From the sequence record SRR22947727_3957: 33,014 bases of DNA. The stretch is one strand, 5' to 3'. This document shows, piece after piece, positions 7,608 through 30,633 of the stretch. Position 1 is the first letter of the stretch. Every line of letters begins with the position of its first letter. The notes beneath the pieces were generated by a model. That model searched no databases and was not told where the DNA came from. It worked only from the letters and a program-made list of their open reading frames with translations. A program made the translations under genes and the position numbers.

Positions 7608-7674
7608 TGATCAGATGCATAACACGCAAGCTGAATAAGTAACATCCATATTCTTTCGAATCTCAAACCTGCGG

Positions 7675-8376: not shown

Positions 8377-9191
8377 AAATCGCTTACTGCCTTCATGGGC
8401 TTCTCGGCTTCACTGACAGTAAAGGCAGTGATTTGGACAACCAAACTAGTGATCAGATTATTGATCCGAGAATTAGTTATGACTCATTTTGTGAAAATCT
8501 TCGCCAAGATCATGAAGTGGATATCTTCGCTCATAGTTGGTCGCATCAGCACAAAAATTTAATCAGTGAATTATATAAACCGAAAGAGTTAGTCACTGAA
8601 GAGCAAATCGATTTCTCAACGCACAGCAACTTTGAACCCTTAGTACAACAGAACAGCTTGATAAAAAAGTTGCGCCTAAATCTTAAAAAACTTACAGATC
8701 AGAAGAGTTACAAGAAAATTCGTAAAAAAAATCAGAACACTGCATTTAGATCGTTCAGTCGATGGTACAGCGCTAAAGAGTCCCTAAGTTTATGCCAACA
8801 GCATGCTACAACGCAAGGTATCAACTATGATATCGTATTTTTATCGCGGTTCGATATTGAATTTTTTACCGAATTCGATTTTAATCAATATGATTCTTCT
8901 TTTTTATGGGCATCACACTGGAATAACTATCCAACTAACAAATATGGTCAAGAAGCAGATTACACAAACCAGCATACCGATACTGGGCTAATGGATCTTT
9001 GGTTTTTTTCAAAACCTGAAAATATGTTTCGGATAATTGATCTTTATAAAGATGTACATCAATACCCACGTTCACCACACAGCGCCATATTACGGCATCT
9101 ACAGTTGAACCGGATTCCTATTAATTACACAAAATATCGGTGGCATGATTATGATTTGATACGGCGGCATCAGCTGGGATCTTTCAAATGA
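8373..9191 (+). CDS. Uncharacterised glycan-locus protein, putative GT-A-like transferase
   Basis: MKIAYCLHG...DIFAHSW...SRWYS...YDIVFLSRFD...D.WFF, a pattern recalled from uncharacterised capsule-locus proteins. GTGA overlap with the upstream gene. Confidence 0.55.
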   Translation: MKIAYCLHGLLGFTDSKGSDLDNQTSDQIIDPRISYDSFCENLRQDHEVDIFAHSWSHQHKNLISELYKPKELVTEEQIDFSTHSNFEPLVQQNSLIKKLRLNLKKLTDQKSYKKIRKKNQNTAFRSFSRWYSAKESLSLCQQHATTQGINYDIVFLSRFDIEFFTEFDFNQYDSSFLWASHWNNYPTNKYGQEADYTNQHTDTGLMDLWFFSKPENMFRIIDLYKDVHQYPRSPHSAILRHLQLNRIPINYTKYRWHDYDLIRRHQLGSFK

Positions 9192-9299
9192 GAAGAGCTA
9201 CTAAAGTTGCTAAACAGTCTGGTCAAATCCAACCAACTTTCCTCTTAAATAAGTTTCACTCGATTCCCTTGAACTCGCAGTCAATGATCAATTAAATAG

Positions 9300-11081: not shown

Positions 11082-11127
11082 ATTATTCAAATTCGTCAGA
11101 AATGACGTCAAATAAAAGGTTCAGAGT

Positions 11128-11790
11128 ATGCCAAAAATACGCAAATATGACGTGGATCGTGCTTCCCTATCATTAGCAAACTCGGCAAATCTGCGATTTG
11201 TCAGCTCAAACTTTGCCCAATTCGAATGGTTTATATTTTTTGGTACCTTACTTGGAGTCATAAGAGAGGGGCAGTTGATAAAAGGCGATGACGATATTGA
11301 TATTTACGTCGCAAAGCAACACCGAGATGAAGTATCAAAGCTTTTGGTAGATTTGGGGTGTACTATCACCGATGATAGATGCCCATATTTTCTTCAAGTT
11401 ACACGAGAAGAGAATGACAACCTTGGCTTCATTGATATTTACTTTTATGACGTCAATGCTGTGAGGCTCGAGGAGAGGTATAACTTCACAGGTAACTGGG
11501 CACGTCCAGAATATGCTCTACACATACCGCTTGAACTAATTTTTCCGCTGCAAACAACAAGCGTCGAAAATGTAGATGTTTTTATACCAAATTGGCCACG
11601 TGCTTGTTTGGAATATTTATACGGACGACATTGGAAAATTCCACTTGCAAAAAAACTCCAGTACAAAGTGGATATCGTCGATAATGTGCCAGCTCTCCGT
11701 CCAACGACTAATAAAGAAAAATTTCAATTCATTTATAAGAAGAGATTTAGACCATTTCTGAAAAAACTTATCAATAGAATGCAGTCATGA
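11128..11790 (+). CDS. LicD family phosphotransferase
   Basis: FGTLLGVIREG...DDDIDI, IDIY, IFPL, LEYLYG..WKIP. Confidence 0.88.
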   Translation: MPKIRKYDVDRASLSLANSANLRFVSSNFAQFEWFIFFGTLLGVIREGQLIKGDDDIDIYVAKQHRDEVSKLLVDLGCTITDDRCPYFLQVTREENDNLGFIDIYFYDVNAVRLEERYNFTGNWARPEYALHIPLELIFPLQTTSVENVDVFIPNWPRACLEYLYGRHWKIPLAKKLQYKVDIVDNVPALRPTTNKEKFQFIYKKRFRPFLKKLINRMQS

Positions 11791-12761
11791 AAGTTTCTGT
11801 TGCGATGGCCACATATAATGGAATGCAATACGTTTCAGATCAACTGCTATCCATCATAGGACAAACGCGGCAGCCTGATGAGATTATCATAGTTGATGAT
11901 GCGTCTACTGATGGCACGGTGAGGGTACTTTCTGATTTATGCAAACAGACTCAAATTGACATCAAGTTGCTTGTTAACAGTACTAATTCGGGGGTGTGCA
12001 CAACATTTAGCCGTGCACTTAGTCAATGTTCAGGTGATATTATATTCTTATCTGATCAGGACGATTTCTGGTATCCGATGAAAATTCAAAAAATGCTTGA
12101 TGTTATGACATTAGATCAATCTTTAGGTTGTTGTATATGTGATGTCGACTTGTCAGACGAATGCCTCCGGCCACTAGGTTTGACGATGAACGAAAGCGTT
12201 TTAAAACGCGGACGTCGATTGGACGATCGTGTGATGGGTGCTGCAGCATGCTTTAGATCAAGTCTTATAAACTTGGCCACGCCGATACCTCAGCATGTAC
12301 ACTCTCACGATAAATGGCTAGTGACGATTGCAAACCATCTTGACTGCAAAAAATTACTTCATGTTTCATATCAACGATATCGGTTACATGAAAAAAACGT
12401 TGTTGGAAACGCAAGAAATCTAACAGCAAAATCGCGAGTATCCACCGCAATCAAGCGTAGCAAGCGTCTACTGAATAGATCAGCAAGGGGTATAGATCTT
12501 CGCCAAGACCTCGCAATGTTGTCGGCAGTTTCACATCTGTTTACAATTAAATCATTTGAAAATGATAACGAGCTTCTAAAAGGAATTAAGAAAGCGCTTC
12601 CAGTAGTTGGAAAACAACTCGGCCTACTTGAAGCAAGGGTCTCATTGCAGAACCTTTCATTATTGGCGCGCACTCATAGTATATTAAAACTCAAGATATT
12701 AAATAGTGCTGACTATTCGTGGTCGAAAATGCTGCAAGATATTGTAAGTGGAGGGAATTAA
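11787..12761 (+). CDS. Glycosyltransferase family 2
   Basis: VSVAMATYNG, VDDASTDGT, LSDQDDFW, HDKW, YRLH..NVVG. Confidence 0.92.
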   Translation: MKVSVAMATYNGMQYVSDQLLSIIGQTRQPDEIIIVDDASTDGTVRVLSDLCKQTQIDIKLLVNSTNSGVCTTFSRALSQCSGDIIFLSDQDDFWYPMKIQKMLDVMTLDQSLGCCICDVDLSDECLRPLGLTMNESVLKRGRRLDDRVMGAAACFRSSLINLATPIPQHVHSHDKWLVTIANHLDCKKLLHVSYQRYRLHEKNVVGNARNLTAKSRVSTAIKRSKRLLNRSARGIDLRQDLAMLSAVSHLFTIKSFENDNELLKGIKKALPVVGKQLGLLEARVSLQNLSLLARTHSILKLKILNSADYSWSKMLQDIVSGGN

Positions 12762-14279
12762 ATGTTATACGAGCATAACGTAAGGATTAGCCCGCTTCAC
12801 CTCGAAAGCGTAGCTACTGGACATGATCCTCTGTACTATTATATAAATCACCAATCTCAAACAATAGTGTATTCAGATGAAGTTGCAAAACTTATCGAGC
12901 ATTTCCAGCAACAAAGTTCACTTAAAGTTTCAAAAGATAGTTTATCTTTCTTACTGCAGTCAGGCCTCATTCCAACCCCAAATACCATTTATACAGACAT
13001 TTTTGTTCTTGGGATTGGTGACAGTATATATGCGGAATATATCGATCACAATGTGGCTCTGACTCATCACCATCGCTTTCCTTATGAAAAGAATAAACGT
13101 GGAAACCTAAAGGCAACAGAACAAGTTATTGAGGATGTATTTAGAGAAATTGCTGCTTTCACTAAAAGCAGAGTTGATCGAGAAAAACCTACGTTTATGT
13201 TTCACAGTGCTGGCAAAGATAGTAACTCGATTGCATATTCTTTATTCCATCATGCACCTGAAATACGACCGACTCTCGTCACATTACGCTCCGATTTAGT
13301 AAAAGATGAGACGCATATCAGTCGTAAAGTTGCCAATGACCTCAATTATAAACATATCGTGGTTGATGAAAATGTGCGAGCACTAGATAGCTATCGCTCT
13401 AGACGGTTACAGGATTTCTTCAGAGACATGGTGTTTCCTAATTGTGACGCAGTTTTATTATCTTACGTTGATATTTTAGAAGACATACCTGAAATACGTG
13501 GTGCAAACATTATCGACGGCATGGGAAATGATATCTACATCGGACACATTTCAGGTTTTAAAGAGCTAATTGGACAGGCAATATCATTTTTATTGCAGCC
13601 TGTTATCCCAGTTTTAAGACAAGTCGTATTACCTGAAAGCCCAGTACGAGCGTTCACGCGAACCCGTGCCGAATGGGTTGGGATGTATGGATTCTCAGAC
13701 CAGGACGCTCAAGATTTACTCGGTCACGAAAAAAACGTCTATAATTACTGGAAGAAACATTCTAAATGGAATGTTAATTATATTGATTTCAGAGCGAACA
13801 TTCGTGGATGCCAGCTGGACCAGGATGTTTTTGTTGGAAAGGTCCGAGCCTTTTCGCATGCAAGTAATGCAAAAGCTGTATTTCCCTGGATGTCCGAAAA
13901 AGTGACAGCATCTATAATGAAAATCAAACCATTCTATTTATATGACAGGCTACGAAGAAAAAATAAGTTAATTTTACGTACTTTCCTTAGAAAGCATCTC
14001 AATCTTGATAGCGAGGCAATAGGCAAGGTTCCATTTTCATTTAATACCCCTAAGTTTGTAGATAATAATCTTGCAAAGATACGAGATGAAATTGTATTAT
14101 GTCCACTATGGAAACAAGATAACACCCAAAAGGTTCTAGACCGTCTAATAAATAGCTTTTCAAGACAAAACCGAAGAAGTAGACGTGCCAAGCAACTGAT
14201 TTTTCGATTGTATCTGATAACTATGTGGTTAAATTATAGCAAATATTCACCCCACAGGATCAGCAAAAATGAAAAATAG
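12762..14279 (+). CDS. Asparagine-synthetase-like adenylating amide ligase lacking N-terminal Cys
   Basis: DPLYY, PNTIY, PP-loop variant HSAGKDS, IIDGMGND, FPW, KLILR, K.PF. The N-terminus MLYE lacks Cys2. Confidence 0.7.
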   Translation: MLYEHNVRISPLHLESVATGHDPLYYYINHQSQTIVYSDEVAKLIEHFQQQSSLKVSKDSLSFLLQSGLIPTPNTIYTDIFVLGIGDSIYAEYIDHNVALTHHHRFPYEKNKRGNLKATEQVIEDVFREIAAFTKSRVDREKPTFMFHSAGKDSNSIAYSLFHHAPEIRPTLVTLRSDLVKDETHISRKVANDLNYKHIVVDENVRALDSYRSRRLQDFFRDMVFPNCDAVLLSYVDILEDIPEIRGANIIDGMGNDIYIGHISGFKELIGQAISFLLQPVIPVLRQVVLPESPVRAFTRTRAEWVGMYGFSDQDAQDLLGHEKNVYNYWKKHSKWNVNYIDFRANIRGCQLDQDVFVGKVRAFSHASNAKAVFPWMSEKVTASIMKIKPFYLYDRLRRKNKLILRTFLRKHLNLDSEAIGKVPFSFNTPKFVDNNLAKIRDEIVLCPLWKQDNTQKVLDRLINSFSRQNRRSRRAKQLIFRLYLITMWLNYSKYSPHRISKNEK

Positions 14280-15126
14280 CACCGGATGCTTATTTGTTGC
14301 CTTTGGAGAAGCGCATCTTGTGCTTAGTCTTGTAGCGATCCGCTCTCTTAAAGAAAAAAATAGTGACTTATCTGTCCAATTGATAACAAACATAGACATA
14401 AAATTGGACAGTTTTGATTTTTGGGATAGTGATCGTGATTTTTTAACCAATTTAATTATGGACACAGATAAAAATAGACTGATCAAAACCAATTTGATAG
14501 AATATACCGTATTTGAGAAAACACTGTTTATTGATTCAGATGCTTTGATCAACGGAAATATTGGCAAAATTTTTGAGTTTTCTGAAAAATTTGATTTAGG
14601 TATTAAACTTAATTGGCGCCCGCAAACTATTGCAGAAAAGTCTTATTACGAAATTTCTAATAGTTTAAGCGTTGGAGATTTTTCTCATTGGAATAGTGGC
14701 GTGTTGCTCTTTAATAAAAATGACTCAATAAGGTCATTTTTTACAAAATGGCAGGAAAACTTTATTGAGATGGACTCACCATTTGACCAACCAAGTCTAG
14801 CTAAAACGCTATACTACATGCCAGAATTGAAATTTATTTCATTAGATGAGCGTTGGAACTCATCAGGACCAGTATTAAATAGGAAAAAGTGGTCACAATG
14901 GGTGAAAATTTTTCACTATACTAATATGATTACACCTCAAGTATTCAGTGAAATAAAAAAAATAGAACCTGATTTACATTTACAAAACATCAAAACGGAT
15001 AAGGCAGTTAGCCTCTTGAAAGCACGAATTGAGCGCCGCCGTAAAAGACTTGGTTTGTTTAGAAATGTTCTTATTTCTTCTTTGTTACGACTCAATAGCC
15101 TAAACAACAAAAAATTAATTTCCTAG
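14269..15126 (+). CDS. GT-A fold glycosyltransferase (GT8-like)
   Basis: FEKTLFIDSD, WNSGVLLF, DQPSL, ERWN, IFHY. Confidence 0.8.
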   Translation: MKNSTGCLFVAFGEAHLVLSLVAIRSLKEKNSDLSVQLITNIDIKLDSFDFWDSDRDFLTNLIMDTDKNRLIKTNLIEYTVFEKTLFIDSDALINGNIGKIFEFSEKFDLGIKLNWRPQTIAEKSYYEISNSLSVGDFSHWNSGVLLFNKNDSIRSFFTKWQENFIEMDSPFDQPSLAKTLYYMPELKFISLDERWNSSGPVLNRKKWSQWVKIFHYTNMITPQVFSEIKKIEPDLHLQNIKTDKAVSLLKARIERRRKRLGLFRNVLISSLLRLNSLNNKKLIS

Positions 15127-15134
15127 TTAACGAT

Positions 15135-15812
15135 ATGTTTATAGAATTTTTCGGGTTCCCCGCGTCAGGAAAATCAAGTGCTGCAGAGCTTCTCACAATG
15201 GAAGTCGGAAATCTGCAACAGACAGCATTTTTGTATTCTCATGGTAAATGTATTTCCGCAAACGATAATTTACAATCTGCCAAAAGTTCAGTCGCAATTA
15301 ACAATCAGCATCGCTCCGAAGTCTTTGCGAAACTTAATTTATTTTTAATCATTTTTTCAAAAATAATACTTGGCCCTGTTGATCCTTTTAATAAAATGCG
15401 GTTCATTAAGCGATTAATCATTTTATTTTTGGCGTTAGGAAAATCGAGGAACAAAATTATAATTTGTGATGAGGGTTTTTTGCAACTTTATATTTCGGCA
15501 CAGATGCCACCAAAAAAATCTCTGGATTTAGATTCTATTAAGGTAGATTTTGACGCAATATTTAAATTAGTTTCGCATATTGTGGTTGTAGGTTGCAAAG
15601 AGGATGTTATCAAAAAAAGACTAAGTGAGCGCGTTCTGGATCACAGTAGGTCGAAGACGTGGGGCGCCGAACTCACTAGCATTTGTTTGCGTGAATACGA
15701 ACGGACGATAACACGCATCACACAGACCTATACGCATCAGGCTACTTACATTGAGGAGGAGAAGACTCTTACCTGCGATATGATCAGAAACATACTGTCA
15801 AAACGGAAATGA
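15135..15812 (+). CDS. P-loop NTPase / nucleoside-monophosphate-kinase-like protein
   Basis: FIEFFGFPASGKSS Walker A, IIICDEG, lid-like KRLSER. Confidence 0.7.
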   Translation: MFIEFFGFPASGKSSAAELLTMEVGNLQQTAFLYSHGKCISANDNLQSAKSSVAINNQHRSEVFAKLNLFLIIFSKIILGPVDPFNKMRFIKRLIILFLALGKSRNKIIICDEGFLQLYISAQMPPKKSLDLDSIKVDFDAIFKLVSHIVVVGCKEDVIKKRLSERVLDHSRSKTWGAELTSICLREYERTITRITQTYTHQATYIEEEKTLTCDMIRNILSKRK

Positions 15813-16948
15813 AAATTACTTTCGTATCTCACAGCAGCAGTCTGCTCGGTGCCTCCAGAAGTATTTTGCCGATCATTGGTGAATGCAAAAGGCAGGGCAT
15901 GACGGTAGAGGTTTTATCTCATGGACGGGGCCCGTTTGTTTTAAAAATAGCGAACTTGGGACTGAATACGCGAATATTATTGGAGAAAAGATCAAAAATT
16001 TCGTGGCTGCGAAACATATTAAGGTTTCTATTTATTCTACCAAATTTTGCATTAATACTTTGGCAGTTATCAATATCTCGGCCAGATTTGTTGTACGTAA
16101 ACACAATTGATAAAGCGCTACCAGTACTGTCGGCAAGACTACTCCGAATACCATGTGTTGTGCATGTGAGGGAGGGTGATGACTATATTCATTCAAAAAA
16201 TTTATTTCGTAAAATGTTGTCCAAGATCATTTTTGATTCCGCACACCATTTTATATGTGTTTCTCAAGAAACGACGCGGAGCGTTAAAAAGGTTCTTTCT
16301 CGCAAAAAAAACTCAAGTAAATGTATTTGCGTTTATAACGGGATCAGCTTGGATCATAATGCAATGGATGATTTTAGAGTTCAACGTTATGAAGATATTG
16401 ATGCAGTACGAATTGGTTTCGTAGGTGGCGGATCTCACAGGAAAAGGTTAGATATTTTTTTAGAGGGGCTAGCGCTCGCTCAAAAACGCGATAAAACCAT
16501 ACACGGCATTGTCGTGGGCCCTACCGCGAAGGAGTTTGATGATGCCCTCAAATCGATTGATGAAAATTGTCAAGAAGACCTAAATGTCCAACATTTTGAC
16601 TTTCAAGAAAATATACACGGCATCATGTCGAGCCTTGACATCTTGTGCCTCACTTCCGATGTCGAAGCATTTGGAAGAGTAATAATAGAGGCAGCGCTAT
16701 TCAATGTGCCAGTCATCGCAAGTGATGTGTCAGGACCGTCAGAGATCATATTAAATAATGTGTCAGGGTTACTTTTTAGTCGAGGTAACGCTTCCGACCT
16801 GGCCAAACAGATGATAACATTATCGGAACATCCTGAATTGCGTAGAGAATTTAGGCAAGCTATGAAAACAAGGGCCGTAATGTTGTTCTCAGAAGAAAAG
16901 TACGTTGCACAATGTATAAATGAAATACAGATTTATGGATCAGTCTAA
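15809..16948 (+). CDS. Glycosyltransferase family 4
   Basis: LGASRS, YVNT, HVRE, VYNG, EAFGRVIIEA (EX7E), PVIASDVSG. Confidence 0.92.
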   Translation: MKITFVSHSSSLLGASRSILPIIGECKRQGMTVEVLSHGRGPFVLKIANLGLNTRILLEKRSKISWLRNILRFLFILPNFALILWQLSISRPDLLYVNTIDKALPVLSARLLRIPCVVHVREGDDYIHSKNLFRKMLSKIIFDSAHHFICVSQETTRSVKKVLSRKKNSSKCICVYNGISLDHNAMDDFRVQRYEDIDAVRIGFVGGGSHRKRLDIFLEGLALAQKRDKTIHGIVVGPTAKEFDDALKSIDENCQEDLNVQHFDFQENIHGIMSSLDILCLTSDVEAFGRVIIEAALFNVPVIASDVSGPSEIILNNVSGLLFSRGNASDLAKQMITLSEHPELRREFRQAMKTRAVMLFSEEKYVAQCINEIQIYGSV

Positions 16949-18113
16949 ACCTCGCAATCTGTCTGAGACTAAAATTGTAATACCCTTGAAAGCATTGCTT
17001 CCTTGTATCTCTTATTGGGATCTCCTAGTTATGAATGTTTTACAACTAGAAAATCTTTATATTGGAACAGCAGCGGTCTCTATTCTGGGATTTTGGGGAT
17101 TTTTGAAAAATGGCTTCATATTGCGATCGAATGTTATTTTAGCTGTATCACTATTAATTACGCCATCAATAGCTGGGTATATGTATTATGGCACTAGCTT
17201 CCAGGCTATATTTAGTTTGTTTATAGCCATAGGAATAGCATTTTATGTGAATTACTTTATTACCTATAAAGTACTTGTATATGTTATTTACTTGATCTCC
17301 AATACAGCATCACTGCTTTCAATAATGTTGGTTGTTCTCTATCCAATATTAGAGGAGGAGGGCAGACTCTTTTTAGTAAATAACGAACCCTCGCATATTG
17401 CAATAGCACTCATTGGACCATTATTTTACTTGGCTTATAACAGGCATTTTGTCCGTATGCTTCCGATAGTAATCGCAATTTTGATGACGCAGTCGTTATC
17501 TGTATTCTTAGCTGGATTTATTTTTATTCTATTTTTTGAAGATCCTAGGAAAAATAATATAATAAAAAGAAATCTTAAAAAGGCTATTTTCTTGTTGGTA
17601 ATTTTTTATTTGGCAACAGTGATCCCAGCTGTAGCTTGGAGGCTGTATAGCTTCAGTACACTCTGGCTTAGCTTTTCGTTTAGTAATATCAACGGTACTT
17701 TTTTTTCGTTCTTATCGCACGCTATGACTTACCCAATATTAATCGGACCAAACTATACAATAGGCTTGGGGTTTTTTAATTATCAAGAATTCTTACACCA
17801 ACCTGAAATACTGGAATTTTATTCAAAAAACCCCGTATTTCAAAACCGTTTAACTAATGAGTACGGCGGTCATTCTATGCTTTTACGGACAGTAAACGAA
17901 TTGAGTATTTTTGTAATCCCCCTGCTTTATAATATCGGTTTTAGGTTGGTGAAAATATTCAAAAACAAAGATTTTGCAATCTTTTCGTTTTTGACAGTGC
18001 TGATTTTGTCACGTTGCTTGAAGTTAGCTGGATATTTTGATTTTGGGTTTTTATTTTTCGTGCTTGCTGTCTTCGTGGTTCAGATGAAGGCGACTCCAAA
18101 GAATAGCCGCTAG
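16920..18113 (+). CDS. Polytopic membrane protein, Wzy polymerase / O-antigen ligase-like
   Basis: Many hydrophobic segments, R...NEPSH motif, and a larger loop ending GLG...HSMLLRTVNE. AT-rich and located among GT genes. Confidence 0.65.
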   Translation: MKYRFMDQSKPRNLSETKIVIPLKALLPCISYWDLLVMNVLQLENLYIGTAAVSILGFWGFLKNGFILRSNVILAVSLLITPSIAGYMYYGTSFQAIFSLFIAIGIAFYVNYFITYKVLVYVIYLISNTASLLSIMLVVLYPILEEEGRLFLVNNEPSHIAIALIGPLFYLAYNRHFVRMLPIVIAILMTQSLSVFLAGFIFILFFEDPRKNNIIKRNLKKAIFLLVIFYLATVIPAVAWRLYSFSTLWLSFSFSNINGTFFSFLSHAMTYPILIGPNYTIGLGFFNYQEFLHQPEILEFYSKNPVFQNRLTNEYGGHSMLLRTVNELSIFVIPLLYNIGFRLVKIFKNKDFAIFSFLTVLILSRCLKLAGYFDFGFLFFVLAVFVVQMKATPKNSR

Positions 18114-18179
18114 TAATGACCTACAGATGCATGATATATAAATTGAAAACCAGATTTTTTAATCGAACTATGAAAAAAG

Positions 18180-19010
18180 GTGAATGAAATGCGGTTGGAA
18201 GACGTTATAAGCAAAGAATGGCTTGACACAAACAAATTGCGGAACGCGTACGTTCACGATAATCCATTTCCCAGTATTATAATGGAGAATTTTCTGAAGC
18301 CCGAGCTGTTGAAGAAAGTTGTGGCAGAGTTTCCTGATCTATCTAAGCTTGGTGAGAACGAAGTGATTAGGTTTAATAATTCAAGAGAGATCAAATTTGC
18401 TGGTAGGGGGATGCGTGTTCTGTCCCCGGCAGCTTTAGATTTGAATGGCTATCTGCAGTCGGATTTATTCTTGGGTTGGTTGAATGCTGTTACTGGGATC
18501 GAAGAGCCCCTCATAGCGGATCCTTATCTAGCAGGGGGTGGGTATCACGAAATTAAGCGCGGTGGGCTCCTTAAAATACATGCTGATTTCAACAAACATC
18601 CGAAGCTGGATTTAGATAGACGACTTAATCTAATAATTTATTTAAATGAAGATTGGGACCCAAGTTGGGGTGGAGGATTGCAGCTGTTCGACGAAAATAT
18701 GGATGCACCCGTAAAAACAGTTGTGCCCAACTTTAACACAGCAATATTGTTTTCTACGACGTCTTTTACTTTTCACGGTCATCCGGATCCTATCACATGT
18801 CCAGAAAATCGTTCTAGGCGGTCTTTGGCTTACTACTATTTTTCTACTGGGCGTCCTGACTCTGAGACGTCTGCCGAAAAACACAGTACTTTGTTTAAGG
18901 AGCGCTTAGGAGAGTCATTTAACACTAGTCTGAACTGGAAATCTTTAATAAAGGATTTTATTCCACCAGTGTTGATCAAGTGTGTGAGAAGTTTTTCTCG
19001 TAAGTTCTGA
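18180..19010 (+). CDS. 2OG-Fe(II) oxygenase family protein
   Basis: PFP..IMENFL, GGGYH, HAD (HxD), LNLIIYLN..W...WGG.LQL, HGHP, RRSLAYYY. Confidence 0.9.
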   Translation: MNEMRLEDVISKEWLDTNKLRNAYVHDNPFPSIIMENFLKPELLKKVVAEFPDLSKLGENEVIRFNNSREIKFAGRGMRVLSPAALDLNGYLQSDLFLGWLNAVTGIEEPLIADPYLAGGGYHEIKRGGLLKIHADFNKHPKLDLDRRLNLIIYLNEDWDPSWGGGLQLFDENMDAPVKTVVPNFNTAILFSTTSFTFHGHPDPITCPENRSRRSLAYYYFSTGRPDSETSAEKHSTLFKERLGESFNTSLNWKSLIKDFIPPVLIKCVRSFSRKF

Positions 19011-21539: not shown

Positions 21540-22339
21540 CACAACGCAAAGGCATTATTCTGGCGGGTGGGTCAGGTACACGGCTCTACCCCCTTACAAT
21601 AGCTGTCTCCAAACAGCTCTTACCCATTTATGACAAACCAATGGTGTATTATCCGCTCACTGTCTTAATGCTTGCAGGGATCAAGGATATTTTGGTCATT
21701 ACTACGCCACAAGATCAGGATCAGTTCCAACGCCTTCTTGGAGACGGCAGCCAGTGGGGCATTCATCTGGAATACAAAATACAACCTTCCCCCGATGGGT
21801 TGGCGCAAGCGTTTATTTTGGCCGAAGATTTTCTTGATGGCGCACCCTCTGCAATGGTGCTGGGTGACAACATCTTCTTTGGCCATGGGTTGCCTGAAAT
21901 TTTAGCTGCTGCAAATGAACAAACGTCAGGGGCTACCGTCTTCGGTTATCACGTCTCAGATCCTGAACGGTACGGTGTCGTCGCTTTTGATGTAGACGGT
22001 AAAGTACAAAGTATTGTCGAGAAACCCAAAGTGCCCCCCTCTAACTATGCTGTAACAGGGTTGTACTTTGTGGACGGGTCAGCCCCACAACGCGCCAAAC
22101 AGGTTAAGCCGTCTTCACGCGGCGAATTAGAGATCACATCGCTATTGGAAAGCTATCTCAATGATGGCTGCCTTAATGTCGAGAAAATGGGGAGAGGCTA
22201 TGCATGGCTAGATACAGGCACACATGCCTCACTCCTCGACGCTTCAAACTTTGTGCGGACACTGACAGAGAGGCAAGGCCTGCAAGTTGGTTCGCCTGAT
22301 GAAGTCGCCTATCATATGAAATGTGATCAAAAAAGCTAG
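21536..22339 (+). CDS. rfbA: Glucose-1-phosphate thymidylyltransferase (C-terminus shortened)
   Basis: Start moved to ATG 21536 (ATGA overlap). [47 protein letters not shown]. 267 aa. Confidence 0.93.
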
Positions 22340-22414
22340 TCAACCTCTAGCTCAAGGCGTCAGTAAAACATTTTAAATTGTTAGTAAGCAATATCTTCGG
22401 GGGAAATAACGTTA

Positions 22415-23110
22415 ATGCGTATCGTATTGTCTATTGTTAGCCATCAACAACAAACTCTTGTCCAAAATTTATTGGATTCGATAGATAGATACGCCAGTTG
22501 CAGCACACACGAACTAATAATTGTTATCACGGAAAATACGTCCGTTTATAATGATGTCAAATCCAAAAAATTTGATGTTAAATTAACACAGAACATAAGG
22601 CAAAAAGGCTTTGGCAGCAATCACAACGCGGCTTTTGAAAAATTTGAATGTGATTACTTCTTTGTAATAAATCCAGATATTGTTTTTACAAAAGATATAG
22701 ATTTTGGATTCTTAATCCAATCTTTTGAAGAAAAAATGATCGACATAGCAAGTCCTAAAATACTAAACTCATCTGGTCAAGTTGAAGACTATAAACGCGC
22801 AGATTTAACTATTTATAACTTAATAAAGCGAAAGCTGCTGAAGAATCACAAAGAGGAATTTCAATGGTTTGCTGGAATGTTTTTAATGATAAGGTCATGT
22901 AGCTTTAAAAGGCTATGTGGTTTTGATACAAACTATTTTATGTATGTTGAAGATTGTGATTTGTGCATGCGAGCCAGGAAAGCAGGGATGATATTAGGAG
23001 ATTTGGAAAATTTTTCTGTAATTCATAATGCACAACGCGTCTCAAGAAGACGCGTTGATCACTTTACATGGCATATAAAAAGCCTAATGAGATATATAAT
23101 ATGCAAATAA
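22415..23110 (+). CDS. Glycosyltransferase family 2 (rhamnosyltransferase-like)
   Basis: GFGSNHN, INPD, AGMF, GFD..YFMYVED.DLC.R. Directly follows the rml genes. Confidence 0.88.
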   Translation: MRIVLSIVSHQQQTLVQNLLDSIDRYASCSTHELIIVITENTSVYNDVKSKKFDVKLTQNIRQKGFGSNHNAAFEKFECDYFFVINPDIVFTKDIDFGFLIQSFEEKMIDIASPKILNSSGQVEDYKRADLTIYNLIKRKLLKNHKEEFQWFAGMFLMIRSCSFKRLCGFDTNYFMYVEDCDLCMRARKAGMILGDLENFSVIHNAQRVSRRRVDHFTWHIKSLMRYIICK

Positions 23111-23188
23111 GTTATTCTATCATTTGTAGAATCGACATAATCAAAATGTCTATGATGTAGAGGTAACGATTTAGGATGACATTGATAC

Positions 23189-23506
23189 GTGTCGCGCTTA
23201 GCCGATTTGAAGTTGCAAATAGCAGAAGCACTTGGATTAGATGCAAGTGATATTTCAACTGTGGAGACCGCATACGAAGGTATATCGATATTCTCCCTGG
23301 ACGCTTCTAAAGTGACAACCCTCAAATCAATTCGAAACATCTCTGTTCAATTAATTGATCAACCTACGGCTTTGGCGCTGTTAGAGCCAATTGACACTAA
23401 CACTAATTCCTCGTTTAAATGCCTAAGTAACGTAGATGCTGTCGAGCAATATCGATACTTCAATCAAATTTTGTATATGCAAAAAGAAACGGGAGCCAAA
23501 AGATGA
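23189..23506 (+). CDS. Hypothetical protein with degenerate acyl/peptidyl-carrier-like pattern
   Basis: IAEALG...E.I.IFS36LD is in register with ACP IGEQLG...EDLGADS36LD, followed by LIDQPTALAL. ATGA overlap with sxtJ-like gene. Weak GTG start. Confidence 0.35.
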   Translation: MSRLADLKLQIAEALGLDASDISTVETAYEGISIFSLDASKVTTLKSIRNISVQLIDQPTALALLEPIDTNTNSSFKCLSNVDAVEQYRYFNQILYMQKETGAKR

Positions 23507-23901
23507 AATTATCAGAAATTGAACTTCCTTCCAATCAAAAGTTTGGATTTTTCTTTACGTTCGTTTTTGCATTGGCAGCAGCATATTTTTACCACTCAAC
23601 CAATGTAACTTGGACTTATCTATTTACTGCAGCAGCACTGGCATTTCTGCTTATCACGCTGATAAAGAGCGACGCACTTCTACCTCTTAATAAGCTATGG
23701 ATGTGTTTTGGACTCCTACTTGGCATGATAGTAAGTCCAATCGTGCTTGGGATTGTTTTCTTTGGACTCTTTACACCCATTGGGATGATTATGCGCCTTA
23801 GTGGACGCGACGAGTTACGATTAAAGCTTATGCAGAAATCAAGTCACTGGATTTCGCGCGAAGAACCAATCAAATCTGACTCATTCAATAACCAGTTTTA
23901 A
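23503..23901 (+). CDS. SxtJ family membrane protein
   Basis: PSNQKFG, PLNKLWM.FG.LLG.IVSPI.LG.VFF.LFTPIG..MRL.GRD.LRLK...SHWI.R, C-terminal NQF. Confidence 0.88.
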   Translation: MKLSEIELPSNQKFGFFFTFVFALAAAYFYHSTNVTWTYLFTAAALAFLLITLIKSDALLPLNKLWMCFGLLLGMIVSPIVLGIVFFGLFTPIGMIMRLSGRDELRLKLMQKSSHWISREEPIKSDSFNNQF

Positions 23902-23915
23902 TAAAGGTTAAGCAA

Positions 23916-24065
23916 TTGGAATTTTTAAAAGAACTTTGGGCATTCTTACGTGTACGTAAAAAGCTATGGCTTGCGCCAATCATTATCGTCATGTTAATTC
24001 TTGGAGGCTTGTTGATCCTTGCGCAAGGTTCTGTAGTTGCCCCTTTCATTTACACACTCTTTTAG
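23916..24065 (+). CDS. DUF5989 / SxtK-like 49-aa single-TM micro-protein
   Basis: Not in ORF track. TTG start after AAAGG; translates to MEFLKELWAFLRVRKKLWLAPIIIVMLILGGLLILAQGSVVAPFIYTLF*. Fills the gap between sxtJ-like and the carbamoyltransferase. Confidence 0.9.
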   Translation: MEFLKELWAFLRVRKKLWLAPIIIVMLILGGLLILAQGSVVAPFIYTLF

Positions 24066-24074
24066 GGGCATCGC

Positions 24075-25913
24075 ATGTATATCTTAGGTATTTCTGCCTT
24101 TTATCACGACAGCGCGGCATGCTTGCTAAATGATGGTGAGATTATTGCTGCAGCGCAAGAAGAACGCTTTACCCGTAAGAAACATGATGCTGGCTTCCCT
24201 CGTCATGCAATTCTTTACTGCTTAAAAGAGGCTGGCATAGCAGCAAAGGATATCGACAATGTAGTGTTTTACGAAAAGCCCTTTGTTAAGTTTGAGCGAC
24301 TAATCGAAACATACCTAGCGTTTGCACCTAAGGGATTTACAAGCTTCGCTAAAGCGATGCCAGTATGGATAAAAGACAAACTATTTCAAAAATCGGCACT
24401 TATCAAAGAGTTGAAGTCAACGCTTGATGAGAGTGTTGATTGGCATGAGCGCTTGTTGTTCTCTGAGCATCACTTATCACACGCAGCAAGTGCATATTAT
24501 CCGTCTCCCTTTGATAGTGCTGCTGTGCTAACGCTAGATGGTGTAGGAGAGTGGACAACAACATCGCTGGCTATAGGTAGAGGTAGCGATTTACAAGTTG
24601 TAAAGGAAATACACTTTCCGCATTCACTTGGCTTACTCTACTCCGCGTTCACATATTACACGGGGTTTAAGGTCAACTCTGGTGAATACAAAGTGATGGG
24701 TTTAGCTCCATATGGAGAGCCACGCTACGCAGAATTAATACGAGAAAAACTCGTCACAGTTTCTGACGATGGTAGCTTCCAGCTGGATATGAGTTACTTT
24801 AATTATGCAACTGGCTTAACGATGACAAACAAGAAGTTTGATTCATTGTTTGGCGGGCCACCACGCACGTCTGAGACGGAACTTACACAGCGAGAAATGG
24901 ATTTAGCTGCCTCGGTTCAAAAAGTGACTGAGGATATTGTTCTTGAGTTAGCCAGAGGGATTGCCAAAGAAACTGGTGAACGTAACTTATGCCTTGCTGG
25001 CGGTGTAGCGCTTAACTGTGTAGCAAATGGAGTTTTGTTACGTGAAAAAATCTTTGACAATATTTGGATTCAACCAGCGGCGGGCGATGCTGGTGGTGCA
25101 TTGGGTGCTGCTCTATCAACTTGGTATCTTCATCACAATAAAGAACGTGTTACTGCAACTGGGCGTGATGCGATGAAGGGCGCTTACCTGGGCCCAGAGT
25201 TCACAGCCAACGAAATTGAAACTGAACTCGCGGCTTGTGGTGCAAACTTCACAAAGCTTCCTGAAGCTGAAATGATTGAAGAAGTAGCTTCCGCCTTAGC
25301 TGATGAAAAAGCAGTTGGATGGATGCAAGGGCGGATGGAGTTTGGGCCACGTGCACTTGGAGGACGCAGTATCATTGCTGATCCTCGCTCACCAGTCATG
25401 CAAAAACAACTTAACCTTAAAGTTAAATATAGAGAGAGTTTTCGTCCATTCGCTCCTAGCGTGTTAAGAGAAGATGTAAGTGATTGGTTTGAGCATAAAA
25501 TAGATAGTCCATATATGCTTCTCGTAGCAGACGTTCAAAATGACAAACGTCGGGCAATGACCGAAGAAGAAGAGGCGCTATTTGGCATTGATAAACTAAA
25601 TGTACCACGTTCTTCTGTTCCAGCAATTACGCACGTTGACTATTCTGCTCGTATCCAGACAGTACATGCGGATACAAACCCTAAGTACCATGCAGTAATC
25701 TCGAAATTTAAAGAGAAAACGGGCTGTCCGCTTGTTGTGAACACATCATTTAACGTTCGTGGCGAACCTATTATTTGCACACCAACAGACGCATTTAAAT
25801 GCTTCATGGGTACGGAGATGGATGTGTTAGCAGTTGGCAATTGCGTACTTTACAAAGAACAGCAAGACGAAGCCCTTAAAGAAAATTATGAAGAACGTTA
25901 TGAGCTGGATTAG
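24075..25913 (+). CDS. O-carbamoyltransferase, NodU/CmcH/SxtI family
   Basis: GISAFYHDSAA, EERFTRKKH, EHHLSHAASA, DGVGE, EYKVMGLAPYG, AGGVALNC, EFGPRALGGRS, RESFRPFAP, HVDYSARIQTV, NTSFN. Confidence 0.96.
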   Translation: MYILGISAFYHDSAACLLNDGEIIAAAQEERFTRKKHDAGFPRHAILYCLKEAGIAAKDIDNVVFYEKPFVKFERLIETYLAFAPKGFTSFAKAMPVWIKDKLFQKSALIKELKSTLDESVDWHERLLFSEHHLSHAASAYYPSPFDSAAVLTLDGVGEWTTTSLAIGRGSDLQVVKEIHFPHSLGLLYSAFTYYTGFKVNSGEYKVMGLAPYGEPRYAELIREKLVTVSDDGSFQLDMSYFNYATGLTMTNKKFDSLFGGPPRTSETELTQREMDLAASVQKVTEDIVLELARGIAKETGERNLCLAGGVALNCVANGVLLREKIFDNIWIQPAAGDAGGALGAALSTWYLHHNKERVTATGRDAMKGAYLGPEFTANEIETELAACGANFTKLPEAEMIEEVASALADEKAVGWMQGRMEFGPRALGGRSIIADPRSPVMQKQLNLKVKYRESFRPFAPSVLREDVSDWFEHKIDSPYMLLVADVQNDKRRAMTEEEEALFGIDKLNVPRSSVPAITHVDYSARIQTVHADTNPKYHAVISKFKEKTGCPLVVNTSFNVRGEPIICTPTDAFKCFMGTEMDVLAVGNCVLYKEQQDEALKENYEERYELD

Positions 25914-26991
25914 AGTATTTTCGATAAATTTAGTGGTTTTTTTATCTTTAGTAGTAGCGGCAGAAATAGCAATTAGATCTGCATGGACGGTTAGTCTCTG
26001 TTTACGTGATGTTTGTGAATTTTCAAGGTTAAAAAAGTTAGCGATCTATGACGATCAATTAGTTGATCATAACATTTCAATTACCCAGTATGATACAGAT
26101 TTGGGGTACAAGCCCACTCCGAACTTTCAAAAAGTACTAAACTTTGGTGGTTGGGATAACAAAATTGTCACAATTACAAGTAAAGGGTATAGAGCAAACG
26201 GAAATGTTGTTTCTTCAACAAAACTGTTGACTGAAAAAAAAATTCTCGCCATTGGCGACTCTTTTACCTTTGGTGACCAAGTGAGTGATTATGAAACTTG
26301 GCCCGCATGTTTAGAACGGAGCATTGAGAGACCGACGATCAATGCCGGTGTATTTGGCTATGGTGCAGCACAAGCAGTGAAGAGAGCGCAAATTATTCAA
26401 GCAGATGAAAGTTTCGATACAATTATTTTTAGTATTTTGGTGAGAGACGATTTTCATCGTGACATGTTTAGCTTTAGGTATGGTCTACCACGACCGGCAG
26501 TTATATCTGTGAAAAATGATGTGCAATACGCAAACGTGCCTCCCAAACATGCAACTGGATCAAAATGGAACCCTAATAAGCCGCTCAATGCACTCTCTTT
26601 TCTCAGGATCAATTCAATGCTTGGAAAAAAAATCATTGATGCTTTAGGTATAGATGTGTCTGGGATGCGGCGGAATGAGATTCATGTAGATGCGACTTCA
26701 ATTGAAAAGGTTATTAATTTTACGCTGACAGAATTTAGTCGTTTAAAAGCGCCGAATAAAATAATAGTATTGCAGTATTCTGAAAAAGATATGCCAAAAT
26801 TATCAAAAGAAGTCGCAAGTATAAAAAAGCAAGTTATCTCTCTCGCGTCTCAATTTGGCTTCACTATCGTTGATACTTTCGACAAAGTAAAATCTGAGCA
26901 TATGCTCGAGAGTCCTGAAGTATGGAATGGACACCATACAGCTCACGGTAACGAATTAGTTTGTAGAGAAATTTTGAAAAAACTTAACTAG
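25900..26991 (+). CDS. Membrane-anchored SGNH/GDSL-fold protein
   Basis: Probable start ATG 25900 (25888 also possible). N-terminal TM INLVVFLSLVVAAEIAIR; GDSFTFG, NAGVFGYG, C-terminal NGHHTAHGN. Confidence 0.85.
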   Translation: MSWIRVFSINLVVFLSLVVAAEIAIRSAWTVSLCLRDVCEFSRLKKLAIYDDQLVDHNISITQYDTDLGYKPTPNFQKVLNFGGWDNKIVTITSKGYRANGNVVSSTKLLTEKKILAIGDSFTFGDQVSDYETWPACLERSIERPTINAGVFGYGAAQAVKRAQIIQADESFDTIIFSILVRDDFHRDMFSFRYGLPRPAVISVKNDVQYANVPPKHATGSKWNPNKPLNALSFLRINSMLGKKIIDALGIDVSGMRRNEIHVDATSIEKVINFTLTEFSRLKAPNKIIVLQYSEKDMPKLSKEVASIKKQVISLASQFGFTIVDTFDKVKSEHMLESPEVWNGHHTAHGNELVCREILKKLN

Positions 26992-26994
26992 TAG

Positions 26995-27408
26995 TTGTTG
27001 ATGTCTGCGTTATCCAGGCCTCAAAATACCTATCATTACTCTAACTCAAAACCGGATATAGCTGAACTGGCGGCCGCGTACGCATTTGAGCTTGCGAAAA
27101 ACCACCCATTCAATGACGCAAATAAACGCACTGCACTAATCGCGATGCGCTTGTTTATGAAGTTAAACGGATACGATTTATCAGCCCCGCCTGAGGAGAA
27201 ATACCGTATGATTATTCAAGTCGCGGCAAGTGATGTCAGCGAGGTAGAACTCGCACAACGGATCCGAGCAAACCTGACGAAGTTACAATGGCGCACGTCT
27301 TTTAACTCATCACCGATACACTTCGTCGTGGGACCCGATATTGATCAGGATGATGTCACGGTCCTGGATCATCAATTCAAGTGTGATGCGATAGCTCATG
27401 TTAATTGA
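26995..27408 (+). pseudogene. doc: 5'-truncated Doc (death-on-curing) toxin fragment
   Basis: Begins abruptly at LLMSALSRPQ, which is internal in Doc proteins, straight after two stop codons. Has HPFNDANKRTA. No RBS. The reading frame runs on into the convergent toxin gene. Confidence 0.75.
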
Positions 27409-27588
27409 GACCGAGCTCAAGCCTGTAAGACTGCCTGACAGCTTATGCAGCCGTAGTGACGGATGATGGATGTCTAGCTCCATCAACTGAAGTGTTTTGA
27501 GATACTGATCTTTTAGAGTGGGGTGCTTTTTGATCCATTTGGCAGCTTTCTTGTTGTAGCTGTCTGTGAAGACCAGCCGATAGCTCAT
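27310..27588 (-). CDS. Type II TA toxin, RelE/YafQ superfamily mRNA interferase
   Basis: 92 aa, basic; HPSLRLHKLSG, SINMSYRI, IGSHDEVY. 4-nt overlap with the antitoxin. Confidence 0.88.
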   Translation of the reverse strand: MSYRLVFTDSYNKKAAKWIKKHPTLKDQYLKTLQLMELDIHHPSLRLHKLSGSLTGLSSVSINMSYRITLELMIQDRDIILINIGSHDEVYR

Positions 27589-27842
27589 TCCATCGCCTCG
27601 ATGCGCCTCACGTGAGCTGCAGGACTCTCAGTGACAAACCGGCCCTCAGCCAGGTCTTTACGTGTCTCATGAATAGCAGCCTCTAGCTCACATGTGCGCA
27701 GGTGAGAGTACTGCTCAAAGCTCATCACAACGTATTTGTCTTTGCCGCGCACGGAGACGATTGCTTCTGTATTCTCAGCCAAGGCCTGCTCTATGGCTGT
27801 GACGCCTCGGGTCTTTAGTTCATTTGCTGGTATACTTGGCAT
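27585..27842 (-). CDS. Type II TA antitoxin, Phd/YefM family
   Basis: IPANELKTRG...AIVSVRGKDKYVVMSFEQY, acidic C-terminus, upstream of the toxin. Confidence 0.88.
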   Translation of the reverse strand: MPSIPANELKTRGVTAIEQALAENTEAIVSVRGKDKYVVMSFEQYSHLRTCELEAAIHETRKDLAEGRFVTESPAAHVRRIEAME

Positions 27843-29733: not shown

Positions 29734-30633
29734 TTATTTCCAAATATTGTGTCGTGAAAACCGCAAGTACCTCGAGACAGTACTTGGATCGGACCACCCT
29801 CCCGCGCGCATAATCGCCGCCATGTCATAACCCTTGATCAATAAGTCTTGAGCCGCTCCCACTCTCAGGGAGTGCCCAGAAACTTCCAAGTCGCTCGGCC
29901 TATCGCACCCCTTCACTTTGATTACACCACGTTTGATGATGTCGTTAACGTTTCGGTCGCAGATTGAGCGGTCTATGAAGCGTCCATGGTTTATCGCGCA
30001 GAAGAGTGGCTCGATTTCTTTTGGCTTTAGTTGGAGCCAACGCCTGACTAACTTGGCACTCCTGTCAGATCCAAAGACGAGCCGGCCCCTCCCGTACTGG
30101 TCAGTTTTACTTTTTCTGATGAGACCCGTTAGTGCACCGTCTGTAGTGAACTTTAGGTCTCCATTTTTTATCGCTACGAGTTCAGAGCGGCGCGCCAGGA
30201 AGTCATAGCCAAGCGAGAGCAGGGCCCTGTTACGTGTGCCCGCGAGAGTGTCTGGCTGCGCGTCAATCATTCTAATGAGGATGTCATGGTTGATGCCAGC
30301 CGCCTGCCGCTGTTCCAAACACTTAGTCCGCTTCAGGCGGCGTATGGCAATGTAGACTTCCTCGCTGTGCGTATGGTCCTCAAATCCCAATAGCTTGTTT
30401 AATCTGCGCAGCGCCGAGATCCGCCTGCGGATAGAACTGTAACTGTAGTCCAGCTGCAGACTTTCTATGAAATAGCATAGCGTTTCAGACGTGAGTGGGA
30501 ATGGTTGGACTTTTCTTTGATTGCACCAATCGACAAATGATCGTGTGTCAGCATAATATGAACGAAGTGTGTTAGGCGCATAAGCTCCTTCAAGCTTTTG
30601 GAGGCATTTGTCTAATTTCATTAATTGTTCCAT
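29734..30633 (-). CDS. Cre-like tyrosine recombinase
   Basis: YAPNTLRSY SAM-like N-domain; catalytic set R (ARRSE), K (KSKTDQ), HSLR, W (AGGW), Y (VSRY). Start could be 30621. Confidence 0.92.
   Translation of the reverse strand: MEQLMKLDKCLQKLEGAYAPNTLRSYYADTRSFVDWCNQRKVQPFPLTSETLCYFIESLQLDYSYSSIRRRISALRRLNKLLGFEDHTHSEEVYIAIRRLKRTKCLEQRQAAGINHDILIRMIDAQPDTLAGTRNRALLSLGYDFLARRSELVAIKNGDLKFTTDGALTGLIRKSKTDQYGRGRLVFGSDRSAKLVRRWLQLKPKEIEPLFCAINHGRFIDRSICDRNVNDIIKRGVIKVKGCDRPSDLEVSGHSLRVGAAQDLLIKGYDMAAIMRAGGWSDPSTVSRYLRFSRHNIWK

Follow-up and report, generated by a model that had tools for sequence, protein, structure and literature searches.

What does a membrane peptide of 49 amino acids (aa) do when it is encoded between a small membrane protein and a carbamoyltransferase and ends in what resembles an acyl-tyrosine shuttle? 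The question is raised by a stretch of DNA of 33,014 nucleotides (nt) from sequence record SRR22947727_3957 (this whole stretch is hereafter called the window), in which positions 23503-26991 (+) encode, in the order J-K-I-SGNH, an SxtJ-like protein, a DUF5989 (SxtK-type) microprotein, a NodU/CmcH-type carbamoyltransferase (CT), and an N-anchored SGNH protein. D-Ala of the Dlt pathway is carried on the invariant Tyr of the C-terminal FXYXXF acyl shuttle motif of DltX and passed to a Ser of DltD, and PatA-type MBOATs bear the same motif at their own C-terminus, as in the FIYANF tail of N. gonorrhoeae PatA (PMC12148441, available text). A first-pass annotation, made from the letters of the window, read the four genes as a carbamoyl relay of this kind that operates without an MBOAT. 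That interpretation is partly supported: the comparative checks favour a DltX-like role for DUF5989, and a covalent carbamoyl-tyrosine relay from DUF5989 to the SGNH enzyme is put forward here as a tentative reading, which may well be right, though we would not call it probable.

The 49-aa open reading frame (ORF), with an AAAGG Shine-Dalgarno-like box ~10 nt 5' of it, matches Pfam PF19451 over residues 1-49 of 49 with 92.7 bits (cut-off 27), and its architecture is as first described: a basic amphipathic N-terminal part (RVRKK), one transmembrane helix, and an uncharged tail of 13 residues ending in FIYTLF, with the Tyr codon at 24051-24053. Database searches returned 4960 relatives at E ≤ 0.001, those among the 120 matches listed being all at least 90% identical, and 3086 representatives of 50%-identity clusters at the same threshold, the best 150 of which are all at least 57% identical. 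The ORF is under strong purifying selection, since the window and one other locus (L003) are separated by 37 nt differences, with 27 silent codons and 3 residue changes, and nucleotide change across 12 loci is likewise mostly silent. In 353 unique, unfiltered rows of the DUF5989 family, the most conserved positions are W18, P21, K15, K16, P43, and Y46 (0.98-1.00 each); within the tail, F44 stands at 0.97, and the Tyr and terminal Phe on which the first-pass annotation had placed its emphasis are retained at 0.99 (Y46) and 0.97 (F49).

A scan of one genome per species for DUF5989 confirmed 507 genomic stretches, spread over Alpha-, Beta-, Gamma-, and Deltaproteobacteria, Nitrospira, and Acidobacteriota, and the counts out of 80 or 64 loci given below use the best 80 of these 507 (mostly Proteobacteria, with some Nitrospira and Acidobacteriota). 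Each of the 87 genomic DUF5989 ORFs ends in [FLA][ILV]Y[TAS][LIV]F directly before the stop, and among a background of 22,936 other ORFs of at least 30 aa from the same loci, 8 end in F.Y..F, of which 6 are MBOAT C-termini and 2 are unexplained. The tail motif is not due to chance and lies far above background. MBOATs encoded elsewhere in the same genomes have the tail F[IL]Y[FY]xF in 19 of the 30 ORFs selected (in the remaining 11, the wrong strand was probably taken), and in these genomes the motif is a mark of MBOATs and DUF5989; the tail of the window's microprotein fits both these MBOAT tails and the published FXYXXF of DltX and PatA. Among 268 database proteins, 225 end in F.Y..F; in most of the remaining 43, the motif is followed by additional, odd residues that suggest read-through or a mis-call, and genuine variants are rare (Leu at position 1, a single FICALF, a single FIYTIY, and a single FIYPI). 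The Tyr and the final Phe persist in divergent DUF5989 paralogues too (AIYSIF, FLYALF, LIYTVF, and FIYAIF). Cluster representatives of 100-207 aa, considered as natural fusions of DUF5989, were rejected as mis-called N-terminal extensions or read-throughs, no search aimed at longer proteins having been made. About 4.5 conserved Lys/Arg precede the helix of DUF5989 and none lies in its tail, and therefore the tail should face the periplasm and the N-terminus the cytoplasm.

The putative receiver of a group carried on this tail is the protein encoded last in the cassette. Pfam Lipase_GDSL_2 matches it weakly (25834/25888-26991; 23.3 bits, below the cut-off of 32.9), and in its AlphaFold2 model (pLDDT 93), in which residues 7-39 form an N-terminal helix, the product of 25888-26991 has a clear SGNH fold. 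The closest solved structure is CgnD of the crocagin cluster (PDB 8a2n; VIA Z 21.5 over 239 aligned residues, against 18.3 for the next entry), which raises the question of a carbamoyl-related role for CgnD-like proteins; GDSL esterases (15-18), PatB (14.7), and the OatA C-domain (14.4) also match. Membership of the SGNH/GDSL superfamily is indicated by this fold, by the invariant block I GDS with S125, and by the nearly invariant H349, blocks III and V departing from the usual pattern (GxND is absent, and GHHT stands where DxxH is expected). In an alignment of 81 sequences (A4), S125, G123, and N152 show no variation and H349, H350, C38, C43, C141, and C359 almost none, and the four Cys fit an oxidising compartment and hence a putatively periplasmic SGNH domain. 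In 54 SGNH proteins examined, a hydrophobic segment lies 72-162 residues upstream of the G[DN]S block in 38 of the 38 with a recognisable block. When the nearest SGNH match per locus was scanned together with the window's own, Lipase_GDSL_2 was found in 40/54, Lipase_GDSL in 22/54, and ALGX in 16/54. A complex prediction of the SGNH protein with DUF5989, in which alignments were not used, gave a score of 0.01 (mark 0.34) and counts neither way.

The match to CgnD brings in a very different explanation, in which the Tyr tail would itself be the end substrate, carbamoylated and/or trimmed by a CgnD-like SGNH protein. CgnD exceeds every other structural match, and the crocagin cluster unites a small precursor of 21 aa, the esterase-like CgnD (a slow peptidase unlabelled by phenylmethylsulfonyl fluoride), and the carbamoyltransferase CgnI (PMC10070186, available text). 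DUF5989, however, is a membrane protein that is 57-100% identical across phyla, unlike natural-product precursors; its loci are glycan loci; and the window is without the other crocagin enzymes (CgnB/E and CgnC-type), its 2-oxoglutarate (2OG) oxygenase (18180-19010) lying 5 kb from the cassette within the sugar part of the locus. We regard this explanation as very improbable.

Beyond the window, the covalent relay draws support from the company that DUF5989 keeps. The window's own cassette unites the parts of an sxtIJKL-type module (CT, SxtJ, DUF5989, and SGNH side by side) and is packed as tightly as had been claimed, with 14 nt between SxtJ and DUF5989, 9 nt between DUF5989 and CT, and an overlap of 14 or 26 nt between CT and SGNH, the gene identities following from Pfam and the model. 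Across loci, SxtJ lies within 3 kb of DUF5989 in 73/80, CT in 75/80, and both in 71/80, 3 of the 9 loci without both ending at a contig edge, and the gene order is J-K-I or I-J-K. A hidden Markov model (HMM) built on the window's SGNH family and iterated on the loci matched 53/80. Among the 64 informative loci (at least 1.5 kb on both flanks of the cassette), 38 have an SGNH gene that starts no more than 400 bp from the cassette, on the same strand in 32 and on the opposite one in 6; one of the 38, L019, is ambiguous, as an MBOAT comes after its SGNH gene. In 6 further loci the SGNH gene is no more than 3 kb away, and in 5 it is farther off. Matches to the SGNH HMM number 45 per 228 kb beside the cassette versus 10 per 539 kb at a distance of at least 4 kb, a ~10-fold enrichment. 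The association also appears in reverse: in 40 genomes totalling 197.5 Mb, the SGNH profile found 69 matches. Twenty of them fall inside the 5-kb zones around DUF5989, which amount to 0.24% of the sequence; 9 are that close to an MBOAT, 4 have both nearby, and 44 have neither. Locus L077 (5.5-18.5 kb) holds nine SGNH-HMM matches and two DUF5989 copies around one trio, a large paralogous expansion of the putative transferases.

The absence of an MBOAT from the window was borne out: the MBOAT HMM had no match at E ≤ 1 in any six-frame ORF of at least 30 aa, Pfam scans of all larger ORFs found none, and the cassette is thus no MBOAT-SGNH system, in which an MBOAT with a catalytic His is paired with an SGNH protein. 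The claim held for most other loci as well, since 74/80 have no match to the MBOAT HMM, and 17 of the 40 genomes, some of whose assemblies may be incomplete, have none at all, 14 of these 17 still having an SGNH gene beside the trio.

On the donor side, CT has both domains of the family, Carbam_trans_N (371.8 bits) and Carbam_trans_C (246.7 bits), contains GPRALGGRS, and has no signal peptide or transmembrane helix; against the NodU equivalog NCBIfam NF041651 it scores 163.6 bits versus a cut-off of 1000 and is therefore a relative of NodU rather than NodU itself. Its branch is a tight one, with 54-91% identity over 75 loci of several phyla, and travels with SxtJ and DUF5989. SxtJ matches its Pfam family over residues 13-106 (cut-off 24.4 bits), and its AlphaFold2 model (pLDDT 87) has helices at 11-31, 35-54, and 56-99 followed by an unstructured basic C-tail, conserved in 39 SxtJ sequences (A6) as GKDxLRL...SYW...NQF with NQF at the end; R12, G15, N63, W66, G70, P79, P92, D103, W116, and F132 are conserved in the same alignment. 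The charge count favours, with some uncertainty, an N-out, C-in orientation that would place the conserved tail beside CT. Identity to the window differs among the parts, with higher values for CT (57-87%, A5) and DUF5989 (61-88%, A3, pre-filtered for the tail motif) than for SxtJ (25-73%, A6) and the neighbouring SGNH proteins (12-24%, A1, 54 sequences). A constant CT beside a variable SGNH protein fits a constant acceptor for CT, which could be the peptide, and a variable final acceptor for SGNH.

The relay may be drawn from these parts as follows. DUF5989/SxtK would be a DltX-like single-pass microprotein, its N-terminus cytoplasmic and its tail on the outer side of the membrane. Bound covalently to the invariant C-terminal Tyr of this protein, a group would travel to an SGNH transferase that is N-anchored and periplasmic. 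That group would be a carbamoyl, made by the cytoplasmic CT from carbamoyl phosphate and ATP, with SxtJ holding CT at the membrane through its basic C-tail. The slowly evolving trio of SxtJ, DUF5989, and CT would then be a generic donor module, and the fast-evolving SGNH protein the acceptor-specific last enzyme, which would take the carbamoyl onto Ser125 and pass it to a hydroxyl of the exported glycan of the locus. Conjecturally, the hydrophobic tail of 10 residues after a G-S turn may dip back into a cavity lined by SxtJ, as the DltX tail does into DltB.

A broader form of this reading can be stated, in which the relay is general and independent of MBOATs: CT would never meet the final acceptor and would charge the Tyr of SxtK/DUF5989 or a fused Tyr tail, and the variable SGNH protein (SxtL, CgnD-like proteins, and that of the window) would be the true terminal carbamoyltransferase. 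We consider this generalization doubtful, if still credible. A possible fused tail occurs in genome G008, where a protein of 1099 aa (L147:1126-4422, -) joins SGNH (18-357) to CT (377-970), has no hydrophobic segment in the SGNH part, and ends in a tail of ~130 residues, ...EEEVGDSVYVMF (final SVYVMF), with no DUF5989 or SxtJ near its ORF. In 301 genomes of the phylum, a single further copy turned up (L152, 94% identical, with the same tail), so that the fusion represents a single lineage. Its Tyr-x-x-Phe end on a long acidic linker looks, in hindsight, like a shuttle arm joined to the enzyme and counts in favour of the specific relay too. In another locus (L014), what seemed to be a CT-SGNH fusion was rejected as an alternative-frame artefact.

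Several observations weigh against the covalent relay, whether specific or general. The membrane crossing is its weakest link, as it leaves unexplained how a cytoplasmic CT charges a periplasmic tail, and the three-helix SxtJ has no conserved His, Ser, or Cys (A6 and the AlphaFold2 model). Beyond the hexapeptide, Pfam (E ≤ 0.01) and PDB searches revealed no sequence homology to DltX or MBOAT tails; a PDB sequence search with the peptide found nothing, a profile search gave only chance matches to the NPxxY region of the 5-HT2A receptor, and neither returned a DltX chain, the presence of DltX in the searched set being unconfirmed. As that segment of a G-protein-coupled receptor fits the tail equally well and homology stops after six residues, the motif alone is weak and cannot carry the argument. 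No SGNH gene was found by the SGNH HMM in 15 of the 64 informative loci, so that the predicted co-occurrence, strong in both directions, does not extend to these, and the flanks of these 15 and of L065 (74 proteins, 116 Pfam families) hold no recurrent substitute partner. Conversely, an MBOAT was found by its HMM in 6/80 loci (L019, L051, L056, L059, L068, and L075), to which the MBOAT-free description does not apply; each adjoins an SGNH gene, and the intact ones carry their own FIYF[DQ]F tail (4 intact examples). SxtJ-like proteins and CT occur without DUF5989 in 7 of 28 CT loci of another phylum, covered with flanks of 1.5 kb, and similarly in four viral contigs (L115 and L117-L119), where CT is preceded by a mini-SxtJ of 50 aa that comprises the last helix and the basic tail. 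A soluble SGNH protein is found beside CT, its gene lying directly upstream, with no J/K and no obvious Tyr peptide (L153 and L162), or fused to CT without a membrane part (L147); the SGNH protein may therefore be tied to CT and not to the peptide. Given these exceptions, the four parts are not an obligate unit. Chemically, carbamoyl-serine enzymes usually turn over slowly, as carbamate inhibitors illustrate. The sulfate donor used by the sulfotransferase of the saxitoxin pathway is cytoplasmic, and this would make an extracytoplasmic carbamoylation awkward, because that sulfotransferase acts, in the part of the literature available, on the carbamoyl nitrogen. Finally, CgnD is described in the available text as a slow leader peptidase and not as a transferase (PMC10070186).

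A plainer account is that of tethering, in which SxtJ and DUF5989 merely anchor or regulate CT at the inner face of the membrane, CT acts directly on a lipid-linked sugar or another membrane-proximal acceptor, and SGNH does a separate job such as de-O-acylation, decarbamoylation, or O-acetyl handling. NodU/TobZ-type enzymes work directly on their acceptors, and tethering would readily accommodate both the CT-SxtJ pairs of the seven loci and the four viral contigs and the 15 of 64 loci in which the trio stands alone amid unrelated housekeeping genes. The basic C-tail of SxtJ and the basic N-terminus of DUF5989 would both be cytoplasmic by the positive-inside rule, and SxtL has been proposed, in the literature as far as available, to be a decarbamoylase. 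On the other hand, tethering does not account for an invariant, uncharged, putatively extracytoplasmic tail of the shuttle type in 87/87 copies, and it leaves unexplained the DUF5989-SGNH pairs that have no CT, the constancy of CT (54-91% identity) across loci with presumably different glycans in which only SGNH diverges, and the ~10-fold local enrichment of N-anchored SGNH genes. It is judged unlikely, if a serious contender.

The DUF5989-SGNH pairs without CT are found in L143, L146 (tail AIYSIF), L075, L023, and, as a second copy, L077, and more than one DUF5989 copy is present in 8/40 genomes. Together with the CT-SxtJ pairs without DUF5989, they suggest two modules, in which SxtJ may dock CT and DUF5989 may go with SGNH. 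In L059, a divergent paralogue of 43 aa (9118-9246, -; tail FLYALF) stands at the head of an operon in which three SGNH genes are joined by an MBOAT gene whose product itself ends in FIYFDF; the database record of this paralogue bears a precomputed PF19451 match, a protein database search with it found only itself, and the published text describes such MBOAT-SGNH pathways as being without a DltX-like microprotein. One viral locus (L116:5788-7046) has, 3' of a CT that is 50% identical, a membrane ORF of 61 aa with an SxtJ-like SYW that ends in KYTLW, followed by an SGNH gene.

These pairs could also be explained if DUF5989 were a non-covalent partner, that is, an obligatory subunit or activator of SGNH and a bridge to SxtJ-CT, whose tail would plug the SGNH site or lend it its shape without ever being carbamoylated, the carbamoyl crossing the membrane on its substrate or a lipid carrier in a flip aided by SxtJ. 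SxtJ is comparable in size to small flippases of the GtrA/ArnE type. The independence of DUF5989-SGNH pairs from CT, the L059 paralogue in an operon whose MBOAT already has a tail of this kind, and the conservation of nearly all residues of the peptide rather than of the Tyr alone, which fits several binding partners, would be in keeping with such a role. It is made improbable by a tail of the exact motif class that is acylated in DltX and PatA (PMC12148441, available text), by the Tyr-x-x-Phe end of the fusion, which on its acidic linker is more like a swinging arm than a plug, and by the lack of a recurrent lipid-carrier enzyme in the loci. The covalent relay thus remains the reading that we prefer, with the reserve already stated.

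The features of the cassette are collected in the table below.

Features of the cassette in the window (positions count from the first letter of the 33,014-nt stretch)
Feature	Position	Strand	Basis or remark
SxtJ-like small membrane protein, 132 aa	23503..23901	+	Pfam PF19588, 40.1 bits
DUF5989/SxtK microprotein, 49 aa, TTG start	23916..24065	+	Pfam PF19451, E 1.4e-26
Hexapeptide FIYTLF at the C-terminus, stop directly after	24045..24062	+	Tyr46 codon TAC 24051-24053
Stop codon TAG of the DUF5989 ORF	24063-24065	+	
O-carbamoyltransferase, NodU/CmcH/TobZ type, 612 aa	24075..25913	+	PF02543 E 5e-111, PF16861 E 1e-73
SGNH/GDSL-fold protein, N-anchored, 367 aa from ATG 25888	25888..26991	+	AlphaFold2 model, fold matches
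Alternative SGNH starts	ATG 25900, TTG 25834	+	
Codon of GDS serine S125 (counted from ATG 25888), presumed nucleophile	26260..26262	+	Invariant in A1 and A4
His349-His350, block V, GHHT replacing the usual DxxH	26932..26937	+	Nearly invariant in A4; H349 also in A1

The surroundings are those of a glycan locus, as had been noted. Pfam scans identified rmlA-D, several glycosyltransferases, LicD, an ABC exporter, UDP-glucose dehydrogenase, and galU, and the island also encodes a polytopic Wzy-like protein without a Pfam match. Its GC content (7000-19000 and 22000-27000) is 33-44% versus 47-62% in the flanks, and toxin-antitoxin-like genes mark its end, with an integrase gene (29737-30633, -) nearby. 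The closest genomic relative (L001) shares 88% nucleotide identity with the window over 23503-25239 only, so that the trio has different surroundings even among close relatives. Directly upstream of the cassette, an ORF of 105 aa (23189-23506, +), the stop of which overlaps the SxtJ start (ATGA), has no Pfam or NCBIfam match and no tblastn relative in the 80 related loci. Directly 3' of the SGNH gene, 26995-27842 holds a Fic/Doc-like ORF (+) and two overlapping small ORFs on the - strand with weak YafQ-toxin and Phd-antitoxin matches, below Pfam cut-offs. Farther away, a protein of 505 aa (12762-14279, +) without a Pfam match contains the stretch SAGKDS, which we take to be reminiscent of PP-loop/asparagine-synthase-type ATPases.

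The acyl-tyrosine shuttle of DltX and PatA is a recent finding, described in the available text as tied to MBOATs and to acyl-CoA or carrier-protein donors (PMC12148441). If the relay proposed here is correct, the principle of the tyrosine shuttle would hold for a donor chemistry and a loading machinery that are both new, and SxtJ and SxtK, which have been entered as 'unknown' ever since the first description of the saxitoxin cluster, would gain a first testable function. The role of SxtL would be called into question as well, and under the general relay it would be reassigned from decarbamoylase to last biosynthetic enzyme, with DUF5989 paralogues serving N-anchored SGNH transferases of Gram-negative bacteria as shuttles of general use, also inside MBOAT operons. 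The cassette is widespread (4960 relatives and 507 genomic stretches), and surface glycan carbamoylation may therefore be much commoner than structural work suggests, which may have consequences for the recognition of marine and soil bacteria by phages and hosts. A literature search, which did not extend to supplements, found no paper linking DUF5989 or SxtK to an acyl-tyrosine shuttle, and in the texts as available nothing tied a carbamoyltransferase to a tyrosine shuttle, carbamoylated polysaccharides included.

Among known systems, DltX-DltB-DltD resembles the cassette in having a microprotein of ~50 aa with one transmembrane helix and FXYXXF at its extreme C-terminus, on a tail that in the cassette is putatively extracytoplasmic, beside a gene for an N-anchored SGNH-type protein. 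Unlike the Dlt system, in which DltX is encoded with DltA/B/C/D and the MBOAT DltB acts as loader, the cassette has no MBOAT, no donor system of the DltA/DltC type, and no detectable homology to DltX; its partners are SxtJ, an extra membrane protein of three helices, and a soluble CT dependent on ATP and carbamoyl phosphate, positions 4-5 of its motif are T-[LIV] instead of polar, and its host is Gram-negative. The PatA/PatB and AlgI/AlgJ/AlgX systems share the tail class and a periplasmic SGNH partner, with ALGX matched by 16 of the 54 cassette SGNH proteins, but in them the tail forms part of the MBOAT and acetyl-CoA serves as donor, whereas the cassette has its tail on a free microprotein. 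PatB has been assayed in vitro with acetyl-Tyr peptides (PMC12148441). TobZ, NodU, CmcH, and GdmN share the two-domain organization of Carbam_trans_N and Carbam_trans_C and act alone on soluble acceptors. The crocagin cluster likewise combines a carbamoyltransferase and a small Tyr-containing peptide, with CgnD as the closest structure to the window's SGNH protein, but the pathway is soluble and makes a natural product, and the available text describes no membrane microprotein or SxtJ there (PMC10070186).

The saxitoxin cluster of cyanobacteria comes from a different setting, its product being a small alkaloid and not a glycan. In the literature as available, sxtJ and sxtK stand beside sxtI, whose product is said to act together with theirs, SxtL is a GDSL protein, and the suomilide gene cluster is a second place where sxtJ, K, and L are grouped. 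Compared by published sizes and families, sxtI (1839 nt), sxtJ (405), sxtK (165), and sxtL (1281) correspond to 1839, 399, 150, and 1104-1158 nt in the window; the published sxtI motif GPRALGRS corresponds to GPRALGGRS, and the Pfam families SxtJ and DUF5989 are the same in both.

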